The notes beneath the pieces were generated by a model. The model was not told the DNA's origin and did no database searches. It saw only the letters and a list, made by a program, of their open reading frames with translations. From a virus (lineage: Duplodnaviria; Caudoviricetes): 37,317 nucleotides of DNA. Shown in pieces: positions 1,823 through 5,366 of the stretch. The stretch covers positions 1-37,317 of IMG/VR virus record IMGVR_UViG_3300028740_000013. One strand, written 5' to 3'. How positions within the stretch are numbered: the first letter of the stretch is position 1; each line of letters opens with the position of its first letter. The translations under genes were made by a program, and so were the position numbers.

Positions 1823-4363
1823 ATGTCTCAACCAACGTTCCGCCCGTATCAGACCACCCTATCCGACGACATTGACTTGGCTTGGGCCGCAGGCGCGCGC
1901 AACGTGCTTGCCAAGCTCCCGTGCGGCGGCGGCAAAACCGTCATCATGGCCCACAAGGCCCGCACGTACCGCGGCGCCTCTATCTGCATTGCACACCGTC
2001 ACCACCTTGTCGCCCAAATGTCGCTTGCGCTCGCCCGCAACGGCGTGCGCCACAGACTCATAGGCGCAACGGACCTTGCGCGGCTCATTGTCACGCAGCA
2101 TGTAGAAAAGCTCGGGCGGTCTTTCTACGACCCGCAGGCATGGGTGGGTGTCGCCAGCGTCGACACGCTTGCCCGACGCGCGCCGGATGACGCCTGGTTT
2201 AAGCAAATCACCCTTTGGCAAACTGACGAATGCTTTCCAGCGGGGACGTTGGTTGACGGTCGGCCGATCGAAACCCTGCGAGTCGGTGACGTGGTCGCGT
2301 CGTTTGATGAACGATTCGGCGTCTTGCGCTCCCGCCGGATCGTTCGATTATTCAAAAACCCCGCGCCGCGGCACATGGTGCGGCTTTACACCCAAGCCCA
2401 TCACGTATTAGAATGCACCCCCAATCACCCGATTTTCACGCAACGCGGCTGGGTTGCCGCAGGGGGCCTAAATGCCGACGATAAAGTGCTTTATGTGCCC
2501 GAAGCCCGCGGACCTAAGCGGCTTTCGACAGGGGCAATACGAGAGGACCGGGCGGGCGTATTGCAGTCGAGAGTGTTCGACGGCCTACCGAGCGAGGCGG
2601 TCATCCGAAACGGCAACCAAAACCAACCTCAAGTATGCGTCGGCGCGCATGAAACTAAACAACCCGATGCGCCACAAAAAATCGCGGGACAAGATGCGCA
2701 AAACGCTGTTGCGGATTGGGCACCGACCGAGCGTCCAGGGCGGCAACGGGACGCCGCCACCCCCAGCGGAAGCGGCGCTTTTTGCGATCTTCGGGGGCAT
2801 GGGCTTCGTGATGCAATTTGCGATTCGGACGGGGAAACGCAAAGGCGACGGGAAGAAAATCCCGCACAGTTACAAAGTGGACTTGGCCAATCCGACGCTG
2901 CGGCTGGCGATCGAAGCGGACGGGGGCTCTCACGGAATGCGGGAGCGCAAGGAACAGGACCGGAAGAAAGAGGGGGTCTTAGGTGGATTGGGCTGGACCG
3001 TATTGAGGTTTACGAACCTGGAAATTCTCAACGACCCGACGGCGGTTGTGGTGAGGGTTTTGTCTACAATCTCGAAATTGAAGACTTCCACACTTATGTC
3101 GCTGGCGGGATCGTAGTCCACAACTGCCATCATCTTTTGCGTAAAAATAAATGGGGTAAAGCCGTCGCACTTTTTCCTAACGCCCACGGGATAGGTTGGA
3201 CCGCCACACCGGGGCGCGCGGACGGTTATGGCCTCGGGCGCCATGCGGACGGGGTTTTTGATGCGATGGTGTCCGGCCCGGGAATGCGGGAGCTTATCAC
3301 TGCGGGGTACCTGACCGACTACAAGCTGCTTTGCCCGCCGTCCGACCTAAAGCTTGACGAGTCGGACCTTGGCGAGAGCGGGGAATTTAAGCAGGCCGCG
3401 GTATCCGCGGCAGTGCGCGGCTCGCACATTACCGGCGACGTGGTTTCCCACTATCTGCGGTACGCCGCCGGCAAGCTCGGCATGGTCTTTGCGGTCGACG
3501 TTGACCACGCGACGCAACTCCTGGCCGGGTTTCAAGCCGCTGGGGTGCCCGCCGAAGTCATCACGCACCTAACGCACCCGACGGCGCGCGCGGCGGTCAT
3601 GCGGCGATATGAGCGGCGCGAGGTACTTGTCGTTATCAACGTCGATCTATTTGGCGAGGGGACCGACTTCCCGGCCCTGGAGGTTGTGAGCCTCGCGCGG
3701 CCAACCGCCAGCTACCCACTTTACGAGCAGCAATTTTGTCGCGCGCTGCGGCTCCTGGAGGGTAAAGCGTATGGGCTTATCCTGGACCACGCGGGCAACA
3801 CGATGCGCCATGGGGGCCCGCCAGACTGCCCGCGGCATTACAGCCTAGACCGGCGCGAGAGGCGCGGGCCGCACCTGCCGGCCGACGGCGTGCCGATGCG
3901 CGCTTGCACGGCCTGCACGGCGCCCTATGCCCGCACGCGGCTGACGTGCCCCTATTGCGGCGCGGAGGCTCCCGAACCTGCCGGCCGCGCCTCGCCCGAG
4001 CAAGTCGAGGGGGACTTAGTGTTGCTGGACGGCGCGGCGCTGGCGGCTCTACGTGGCGAGGTCGCGCACATTGACGGCCCGGCGCGCGTGCCCGGGCACC
4101 TGGACGGCCCGGCGCGCATATCATGCGAGCGGCGCCACCTAGAGCGGCAGCAAGCCCAAGCGACCTTGCGCGCCACGATCGCGCTTTGGGGCGGCTGGCG
4201 GCGGCGTGAGGGCGAGGACGACCGGGAGGCGCAACGGCGCTTTTGGTTCCGGTTTGGCGTCGACGTGGCGACCGCTCAAACGCTGGGTGCGCGTGAGGCT
4301 GGGGAGCTTTGCAGTCGGGTCGCGGGGGACTTGTCGACGGCGGGCGTCGTCGCCGCTACTTAG
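1823..4363 (+). CDS. Superfamily 2 DExH helicase (RadD/YejH-like, C-terminal Zn ribbon), intein-containing
   Basis: Q motif FRPYQ, Walker A PCGGGKT, motif II DE|CHH split by the intein, motif III TATP, LFGEGTDFP, QQFCRALR, CxxC...CPYCG. ATG 1823 preferred over TTG 1805. Confidence 0.93.
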   Translation: MSQPTFRPYQTTLSDDIDLAWAAGARNVLAKLPCGGGKTVIMAHKARTYRGASICIAHRHHLVAQMSLALARNGVRHRLIGATDLARLIVTQHVEKLGRSFYDPQAWVGVASVDTLARRAPDDAWFKQITLWQTDECFPAGTLVDGRPIETLRVGDVVASFDERFGVLRSRRIVRLFKNPAPRHMVRLYTQAHHVLECTPNHPIFTQRGWVAAGGLNADDKVLYVPEARGPKRLSTGAIREDRAGVLQSRVFDGLPSEAVIRNGNQNQPQVCVGAHETKQPDAPQKIAGQDAQNAVADWAPTERPGRQRDAATPSGSGAFCDLRGHGLRDAICDSDGETQRRREENPAQLQSGLGQSDAAAGDRSGRGLSRNAGAQGTGPEERGGLRWIGLDRIEVYEPGNSQRPDGGCGEGFVYNLEIEDFHTYVAGGIVVHNCHHLLRKNKWGKAVALFPNAHGIGWTATPGRADGYGLGRHADGVFDAMVSGPGMRELITAGYLTDYKLLCPPSDLKLDESDLGESGEFKQAAVSAAVRGSHITGDVVSHYLRYAAGKLGMVFAVDVDHATQLLAGFQAAGVPAEVITHLTHPTARAAVMRRYERREVLVVINVDLFGEGTDFPALEVVSLARPTASYPLYEQQFCRALRLLEGKAYGLILDHAGNTMRHGGPPDCPRHYSLDRRERRGPHLPADGVPMRACTACTAPYARTRLTCPYCGAEAPEPAGRASPEQVEGDLVLLDGAALAALRGEVAHIDGPARVPGHLDGPARISCERRHLERQQAQATLRATIALWGGWRRREGEDDREAQRRFWFRFGVDVATAQTLGAREAGELCSRVAGDLSTAGVVAAT
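2231..3124 (+). mobile_element. Class 1 intein (298 aa) in helicase Walker B/motif II
   Basis: Block A CFPAGTLV, block B LECTPNHPIF, blocks F/G VYNLEIEDFHTYVAGGIVVHN followed by +1 Cys. Removal restores WQTDECHHLL. Confidence 0.95.
2472..3116 (+). CDS. Vsr/DUF559-like PD-(D/E)XK homing endonuclease nested in the +1 frame of the intein
   Basis: 214 aa. CFMC...YCSREC Zn finger, NNPM...RDKMRKTL (NUMOD3-like), YKVDLA...IEADGGSH...QDRKKE..L..LGWTVLRF. AGGGGG 5 nt upstream of the ATG. Confidence 0.88.
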   Translation: MPTIKCFMCPKPADLSGFRQGQYERTGRAYCSRECSTAYRARRSSETATKTNLKYASARMKLNNPMRHKKSRDKMRKTLLRIGHRPSVQGGNGTPPPPAEAALFAIFGGMGFVMQFAIRTGKRKGDGKKIPHSYKVDLANPTLRLAIEADGGSHGMRERKEQDRKKEGVLGGLGWTVLRFTNLEILNDPTAVVVRVLSTISKLKTSTLMSLAGS

Positions 4364-4840: not shown

Positions 4841-4923
4841 AACCACACCCAAAGGGCCGCACCCACCGCCAACCAAAAAAGCGCGCAAAGCCCCGTCGCG
4901 ATGGTAGCTCCATAGTTGCTCAT
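4837..4923 (-). CDS. Small membrane peptide (28 aa)
   Basis: GAGGGA RBS, ATGA overlaps at both ends, MSNYGATIATGLCALFWLAVGAALWVWL. Confidence 0.55.
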   Translation of the reverse strand: MSNYGATIATGLCALFWLAVGAALWVWL

Positions 4924-5366
4924 TTTTTGTCCCTCGGTTGGTACGCGCGGGCGGCGTGCGCCTCGCAATATGGATAGTTTTGGTGGGTGGCGTGGCCACA
5001 ATAGCAGAAGTCCGGTGTAAGCGGGTCGCCGATCGGCCAGCGGCATTGATTGGCCTGGAGGGTCTCAAGGGTGGTGTGTGCGCCCGTAACCGACGACACG
5101 GGCGGTTCGGCTTCTTGCTGGCGGAGTATAGCGGGGCGGGGCTTGCGGGAGATACCGCCAGCGACTCGCGGCGCTCGGTTTTGTGAGGATCCCGGCTGTT
5201 GCGCGAGAGTGGGCGCCCCGTCGGTCCCTTTGAGGCGGTGAATTTTGCCGATTATGGCGCTACGGGAGGTATCCCCGAGCGCGTGAGCAATTTGCAAGGC
5301 GGACAACCCTTCGGCGGCCAGCACTTTAAGCTGCTTTAATTTTTCATCGGTCCAAACGTCAGCCAT
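4920..5366 (-). CDS. gcrA: GcrA-family cell-cycle transcriptional regulator homologue (148 aa)
   Basis: WTDEKLKQLK...GLSALQIA..LGDTSRSAIIGKIHRL (HTH) and CRWPIGDP...FCYCG...PYCEAHAARAYQ. Confidence 0.9.
   Translation of the reverse strand: MADVWTDEKLKQLKVLAAEGLSALQIAHALGDTSRSAIIGKIHRLKGTDGAPTLAQQPGSSQNRAPRVAGGISRKPRPAILRQQEAEPPVSSVTGAHTTLETLQANQCRWPIGDPLTPDFCYCGHATHQNYPYCEAHAARAYQPRDKK

Follow-up and report, generated by a model that had tools for sequence, protein, structure and literature searches.

A contiguous intein in a phage helicase gene is overprinted in the +1 frame by the gene of a probable Vsr-like homing nuclease

The 37,317-nucleotide tailed-phage record IMGVR_UViG_3300028740_000013, hereafter the window, carries in its superfamily 2 (SF2) DNA helicase gene a segment (positions 2231-3124, + strand) that most likely has two coding frames. 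In frame with the helicase it would encode a self-splicing intein, and one base on a separate nuclease of the Vsr-like (EDxHD) kind, which likely spreads the insert by homing. We assign this reading a probability of roughly 85%. Sequence comparison demonstrated that both frames are selected, that the active site of the nuclease is conserved and its start signals are present, and that the element moves as a unit.

The intein is a contiguous one of the class 1 type, comprises 298 amino acids and interrupts Walker B (motif II) between TDE and CHH. Its translation is free of stops, running CFPAG...TPNH...VYNLE...VVHN up to a Cys, and contains the class 1 residues Cys1, Thr63-Pro-Asn-His66 of block B, His297-Asn298 and the +1 Cys. 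Its ends were assigned from Hint/intein domain matches and from an intein-free relative. The N-terminal splicing region (2231-2500, +; Cys1, with TPNH at 2417-2428) matches PT-HINT (12-87, E-value 4e-7), and the C-terminal one (3059-3124, +; VYNLE...VVHN) matches TIGR01443 (277-298) and is overlapped by the nuclease tail STISKLK, which runs to the TAG at 3114-3116. These two models scored above their cut-offs, and Intein_splicing and TIGR01445 below theirs; the Mtu RecA mini-intein also matches (E 3e-8), as does, weakly, the Spl DnaX mini-intein (E 7e-5). A relative with a 98% identical C-extein, L162, lacks exactly the segment 2231-3124 and reads WQTDEAHHLLRKN. The intein is predicted to splice in cis, restoring the DECH motif.

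Composition and per-frame conservation mark the stretch at 2501-2992 (+) as an intein-frame linker, a stop-free but poorly conserved shadow of the nuclease gene. Linker codons 91-254 are rich in Gly, Ala, Arg, Gln, Asp, Glu, Pro and Ser, with 16% hydrophobic residues versus 29% in the nuclease, and match no simple LAGLIDADG or HNH pattern. Searches of the intein frame against Pfam and NCBIfam found no endonuclease and matched only the Hint/intein ends, and a single-sequence fold prediction of this frame was uninformative (predicted local distance difference test score (pLDDT) 35). A sequence-only reading of this DNA had described a 298-residue intein with intact splicing blocks and a G/A/R/Q/D/E/P-rich middle devoid of LAGLIDADG and HNH motifs; residues, domain matches, composition and pattern scan all agree with that description. 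Unlike a canonical bifunctional intein, whose endonuclease lies in frame, the window has its DUF559 domain in the +1 frame only, and unlike a fractured gene, in which the intein occupies two open reading frames (ORFs), its intein is contiguous.

The +1-frame gene (2472-3116, +) encodes a 214-residue nuclease, assigned from a DUF559 match (Pfam, E 1.7e-12), homologues, a structure model and a fold match. The protein consists of a four-Cys finger (C6, C9, C31 and C35), which would bind zinc, a helical SARM..NNPM region, a GGNG linker and a Vsr-like/EDxHD domain. The active-site set D137, E148, D150, H154 and D163 is kept in 151/151 sequences of the locus alignment, an invariance that is partly built in because E148-H154 and GW..RF.N belonged to the locus-search patterns; D137 and D163 did not. 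A separate protein search yielded 88 nuclease relatives of 123-322 residues, most of which end in an STISK-like sequence, that is, intein block F read one base on. In the alignment from this search D137, E148, H154 and D163 are invariant (73/73), and the four N-terminal Cys are more than 90% conserved among the 73 sequences. The structure model built on the 73-sequence alignment is confident (pLDDT 90.7). Its best match among solved structures is the catalytic domain of the homing endonuclease I-Bth0305I (3R3P, E 4e-4; 1CW0, E 0.014), a modest match of the C-terminal domain only (template modelling score 0.30 over the query and 0.59 over the target), and the spacing of D137, H154 and D163 (17 and 9 residues) equals that of D196, H213 and D222 in I-Bth0305I. 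The coherent DUF559/Vsr nuclease proposed in the sequence-only reading, and the detection of its fold, are thereby borne out. The NUMOD3-like motif named there is not: no NUMOD family matched in Pfam at E<=0.1, although SARM..NNPM is conserved, and the place of a NUMOD at the N-terminus is filled by this helical region and the four-Cys finger.

The start of the nuclease gene (2461-2474, +) combines a Shine-Dalgarno (SD)-like AGGGGG at 2461-2466, five bases 5' of ATG 2472 and noticed together with this ATG from the outset, with an in-frame TAA that abuts the ATG; the calculated anti-SD pairing is -9.4 kcal/mol. Across the family, an ATG lies at most 20 codons ahead of the first CxxC in 126/150 loci versus 143/293 control windows, and anti-SD pairing has a median of -4.7 kcal/mol at nuclease starts versus -1.8 kcal/mol at 902 internal ATGs (p 5e-12). 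This enrichment of ATG and SD signals argues against production of the nuclease as a fusion by +1 ribosomal frameshifting from the helicase-intein frame, which we regard as very improbable even though nuclease starts cluster at intein codons 73-108 and 24 of the 150 loci have no nearby ATG. In the window, such a frameshift must fall within five codons to keep the Cys finger, because the +1-frame TAA abuts the ATG. A sigma-70-like promoter match inside the intein (2385-2414, +), 57 nucleotides before the ATG, is a weak hint, as the one match found in the window versus 0.6 expected is not above chance; promoter-like sites of varying position occur upstream of the nuclease in 36/116 homologues versus 20.5 after shuffling. 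No RNA structure was found across the nuclease start in the window (z +1.4).

In the window, the intein frame contains no stop over the nuclease, versus 7.7 expected from the nuclease's own third-base usage (P ~1e-4). For the family we took the best 80 of at least 468 viral and the best 80 of at least 315 metagenome matches, ranked by likeness to the window nuclease. Of these sequences, window included, 150/161 have no stop in the intein frame over the length of the nuclease. After merging at 90% identity this holds for 133/143, where 11 stops would be expected on average, and the other sense frame is open in 0/143. The 133 amount to a share of 93%, which is not the family-wide rate because the ranking favours intein-borne copies, the window nuclease's tail being the shadow of intein block F. 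The ten remaining sequences of the 143 have 6-29 stops in the intein frame versus 10-27 expected. Both intein ends are visible in 122 of the 133, with DE directly before the intein in 119. Along the nuclease codons, nucleotide entropy is 1.25, 1.11 and 1.64 at positions 1, 2 and 3, and strongly conserved columns number 26/160 in the nuclease frame versus 3/160 in the intein frame (151 sequences). Between the Vibrio phages 1.194.O and 1.088.O, 32 of the 35 differences within the overlap fall on nuclease third positions; counted by codon, the nuclease frame has 31 synonymous and 4 non-synonymous changes and the intein frame 5 and 29, and outside the overlap 7/10 differences fall on intein third positions. 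By these comparisons the nuclease frame is under purifying selection, and the intein-frame linker drifts freely, barred only from gaining a stop. A contiguous intein with a separate +1 nuclease, both frames open in homologues, the nuclease frame conserved and the intein frame divergent but stop-free, is the pattern that the sequence-only reading had foreseen.

The +1 register might be suspected to stem from an assembly error or compensating frameshifts that displaced an ordinary in-frame nuclease, as distant nuclease relatives do lie in frame in capsid-protein inteins. We compared the window with assembled contigs of three further runs, which cover 2228-3477 (X2, two overlapping contigs), 2000-2782 and 2996-3193 (X3), and 2823-2973 (X4). 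They contain no other letter and no gap, hence none of the compensating indels that would bring the nuclease into the intein frame. Moreover, the nuclease has the same-strand +1 register in the window and in all loci so classed, 159 non-redundant sequences with cultured phages among them. A search among proteins of 509-2000 residues for a full-length in-frame copy found none, only generic DUF559 proteins (best 70 bits), which is weak evidence. The family-wide register refutes this explanation, and its probability is negligible.

Allele comparisons point to a mobile element. In cultured Vibrio phages, of which six of the 105 matching records were examined, the inteins of 1.194.O and 1.088.O are 95.8% identical within helicase flanks of 76-78% identity; K391 carries the full intein too, and 1.251.O and 1.023.O are empty at that site. 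Phages phi673, with the intein, and phi674, without it, form a harmless laboratory pair on Corynebacterium glutamicum; the passage found of the phi673 paper mentions this intein and that phi674 lacks it, and has no nuclease. Empty sister alleles of the window locus occur in run X1, which may be the window's own source, in run X2 and in L162. Such coexistence of full, mini and empty alleles, with near-identical inteins in diverged helicases, is as homing predicts. At DE|CHH, Vibrio phage K389 (L249:529-2613), a close relative of K391, has a 150-residue mini-intein that looks unrelated and in DNA is only ~50% alike to the full one in K391.

The residue after the intein separates carriers from empty alleles: it is Cys in 151 and Ser in nine of the 160 carriers, and among 17 intein-free relatives it is Ala in 12, Gly in two, and Val, Cys and Ser in one each. 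By established intein chemistry, Ala at this position cannot support splicing. The +1 Cys codon opens a likely co-conversion tract (3125-3214, +), marked by divergence from the empty relative L162 and by low G+C content at third codon positions (GC3). Window and L162 differ at 22/90 positions directly after the intein versus 125/1146 further on, the maximum of all windows, although the 90-nucleotide tract was picked after looking (fixed-window p ~0.001, uncorrected). GC3 is 0.40 in the first 25 codons versus 0.79. This divergence and low GC3 would fit a repair event that brought in the Cys codon and adjacent sequence from a donor.

Relatives of the nuclease are found in other settings. Three loci, L116:1709-2662, L137:750-1718 and L182 (~2230-3310), are candidate split inteins in helicases, placed after DExHx, three residues beyond DE. 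In each, an 88-residue N-part terminates at a stop, a stretch with 15-25 stops follows, and a C-part of 48-57 residues begins at an ATG of its own; both intein parts share one frame, and the nuclease lies at +1. At L223:2402-3250, a DnaX-like host has an overprinted intein with one linker stop versus ~17 expected, which may be an incipient split, a pseudogene or a sequence error. Five of eight free-standing nucleases (L033, L092, L095, L102 and L141) lie directly 5' of a helicase-type gene that is intein-free and has a Walker B-like motif, often overlapping its start; the other three have no helicase neighbour in view. Finally, inteins of Mu F-like minor capsid proteins contain the Cys-finger/RMKKNNPM/DUF559 nuclease in frame (L234:983-3154, L236:977-3097, L237:1049-3217 and L240:1229-3346); in-frame Vsr-like intein nucleases were not found in the available text of the literature compared.

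In nuclease trees, which used 68 of 173 rows and were rooted on the four in-frame relatives (5/65 branches starred), split and free forms are scattered among the contiguous ones, and the approximately unbiased test rejects one clade of all contiguous forms (p 0.02). FastTree places the three split loci together at 0.99, but L116 drops out in IQ-TREE. Because the trees are poorly resolved, gains and losses of these states cannot be ordered. Residual stop avoidance, tried as a trace of overprinted descent, was inconsistent and was set aside: z values span -1.9 to +1.6 for the three split loci, and among seven free forms tested only L092 stands out at z -2.7. The suggestion in the sequence-only reading of an intermediate on the way to split inteins is therefore upheld in one part, since three split relatives keep the register, and left without a direction by the tree; as a stage towards split inteins, the overprinted form is plausible on these comparisons.

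The interspersion of the eight free-standing relatives with intein-borne ones, and the three among them without a helicase neighbour, also lend something to another explanation, that the +1 protein is selected without being the intein's homing enzyme: a phage nuclease of the free-standing type would shelter in the intein and cut competing genomes at other places in the helicase gene or close to it. This we consider improbable, given that intein and nuclease move as one sharp-edged unit between diverged helicase genes, that complete inteins follow DE with the few exceptions counted above, and that empty, mini and full alleles coexist.

The reading of the segment as an intein with its own homing nuclease has evidence weighing against it as well. 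Besides the search-dependent share of the active-site invariance, the ranking behind the stop-free share, the modest 3R3P match and the after-the-fact choice of the 90-nucleotide tract, DUF559-like domains are also present in many proteins unrelated to homing. The 24 loci mentioned lack an ATG in the 20-codon range, and the leader read for two Vibrio alleles is weak and A-rich. The Vibrio pattern could partly stem from general recombination between phages. A few metagenomic pairs are far more alike in the nuclease than in the extein (72% versus 29% identity for L128/L154), but homing is not frequent everywhere, because most close pairs diverge similarly in nuclease and extein.

These data enable us to propose a putative model, in which we infer that the intein splices, that the nuclease is translated separately, and that it cleaves empty Walker B alleles, which gene conversion then fills. 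In the helicase frame, the intein would splice in cis and restore the DECH motif. Translation of the nuclease would start independently at ATG 2472, for which an intein-internal promoter might be of help, and the protein would then cut intein-free helicase alleles near the Walker B codons. Repair of the cut copies would insert the element by homing, with the +1 Cys codon copied along with it. By virtue of this co-copied Cys, the intein could enter DEAH-type alleles that have no nucleophile at that position.

The sequence-only reading had held this to be an undescribed third architecture, a claim that falls because out-of-frame intein nucleases are in print. In the available text of a preprint by Gosselin, Arsenault and Gogarten (bioRxiv 10.1101/2025.01.02.630785), contiguous actinobacteriophage inteins carry antisense LAGLIDADG, antisense VSR-like or same-strand frame-3 EndoVII nucleases, 63 out-of-frame cases that are called rare. 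Those inteins resemble ours in being contiguous phage inteins with an out-of-frame nuclease, the VSR-like one matching 3R3P, and in evidence of continued transfer. They differ in that their VSR-like ORF is antisense and their same-strand case an EndoVII in frame 3, whereas the window nuclease is same-strand at +1; in their hosts, which are DNA polymerase, minor capsid, terminase and thymidylate synthase rather than helicase; and in second ORFs that typically avoid the splicing domain, whereas the nuclease stop of the window's family mostly lies within the intein's last blocks. The text seen of Phillips, DeSimone and Gogarten (bioRxiv 10.64898/2026.09.14.751524) describes a cyanobacterial dnaX intein with an out-of-frame endonuclease, an SD and per-frame ratios of non-synonymous to synonymous substitution, a case for which it credits Gorbalenya 1998; the site of this intein is just after Walker B (PMC4760082, as far as its available text goes). 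It shares with the window an overlapping nuclease ORF with an SD, frame-dependent selection and the coexistence of full, mini and empty alleles. Compared mainly by description, it is LAGLIDADG-class and confined to one cellular host gene, whereas here the nuclease is Vsr-like and many viral ATPase families are hosts.

Three further systems are related in part, judged from the portions of the papers available. In the fractured genes of Dassa et al. 2009 (PMC2677866), a Vsr-like nuclease gene likewise lies within the intein locus and has a short 3' overlap with the downstream part, but the intein is split, as in L116, L137 and L182, and not contiguous as in the window; the model given there leads from invasion straight to fracture or to in-frame fusion, and includes no stage that is both contiguous and overprinted. 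I-Bth0305I (Taylor et al. 2011, PMC3239194) shares the order of an N-terminal DNA-binding part and a C-terminal Vsr-like domain and the three-residue spacing, but is intron-encoded, targets recA and has a NUMOD2/helix-turn-helix N-terminus in place of the four-Cys finger and helical motif. The hidden HNH nuclease in the methylase of phage ShiLan (Arsenault et al. 2025, PMC11855218) is also an out-of-frame nuclease in a stop-free in-frame insertion, but has no splicing domain, belongs to the HNH family and has no SD. The window thus falls within the broad kind of a contiguous intein with a selected other-frame nuclease ORF. In the literature searched, as far as its text was available, we did not find a same-strand +1 Vsr-like family at Walker B, and preprint supplements could list phi673-like cases. 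Nor did we find described there the size of this family, its spread over Walker B of SF2, DnaX-like and UvrD-like hosts, or its split, free-standing and in-frame relatives.

To the first loci we added four cultured phages and the 63 loci that a split relative retrieved; the resulting census of 177 non-redundant sequences comprises 151 contiguous +1 forms, eight of the same form cut by contig ends, four classed as split, ten free, two of these being weak fragments, and four in frame, shares that are not family-wide rates. The hosts are mostly SF2 helicases (116/160 in one cluster). Scanning 26 pieces, nine of them without a Pfam match, added DnaX-like, SNF2-like, Helicase_C_2, XPB-like, RecQ-like and UvrD-like proteins and a terminase. 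In most cases (128/132) the nuclease gene ends within the final blocks of the intein. All 40 GenBank phage records matched (40/40) list only the host gene over the nuclease; six regions were inspected directly. The window's nuclease protein had no match in cellular genomes; a narrower alignment with one pattern, a search of low sensitivity, returned 30 loci there, of which two belong to the family, both on contigs of metagenome-assembled genomes and at +1 in a helicase intein. The overprinted intein of L147:1-5604 lies in an SNF2-related helicase ORF of very large size, which stays open over the full length of the locus, and L157:2447-2812 has a short intein of 191 residues whose +1 nuclease ORF has lost its N-terminal half, a decay step towards a mini-intein.

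The host gene of the window (1823-4363, +), with ResIII and Helicase_C domains and assigned to PHROG 16 (DNA helicase), is of a myovirus-type phage. Its precursor from ATG 1823 has 846 residues, and 548 if spliced; the earliest listed start of the ORF is TTG 1805. Scanning 39 of the 153 ORFs identified genes of a contractile-tail tailed phage, namely primase, DNA polymerase, tail sheath, baseplate and major head, and the runs that match the window best are peat metagenomes. The region 2-1777, 5' of the helicase, is a long Gly/Ser/Thr-rich ORF without a PHROG match; in the close relative L162 another gene takes its place and similarity to the window begins only at ~1785, so this ORF is possibly a swapped tail-fibre-like gene. 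At 4920-5366 (-), a 148-residue ORF that starts MADVWTDEKLKQLK and ends in a Cys/His cluster has PHROG matches of unknown function. We take it to resemble a GcrA-type regulator, which would presumably point to an alphaproteobacterial host.

In summary, out-of-frame intein nucleases, described as rare, are the rule in this family, whose hundreds of members are missed by gene callers. Overprinted inteins would be misfiled as carriers of decayed nucleases though they are likely mobile, and the family offers many candidate Vsr-like homing nucleases as well as a clean natural case of overlapping-gene evolution. More tentatively, and with the odds somewhat against it, the family may be a single large, annotation-invisible phage mobile element aimed at the Walker B codons of unrelated ATPases (SF2, DnaX-like, UvrD-like and a terminase), carrying its own +1 Cys by co-conversion, which would give it access to DEAH-type genes, and existing in overprinted, split, free and mini forms, of which the overprinted one would be the direct precursor of split inteins. 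If so, the overprinted form would already hold the nuclease start and need only a linker stop and an internal ATG, as in L116, L137 and L182, and L223 with its one stop would be this step caught in the act. In any case, the family supplies three pairs of candidate natural split inteins, and with them a path from contiguous to split forms that can be put to the test.

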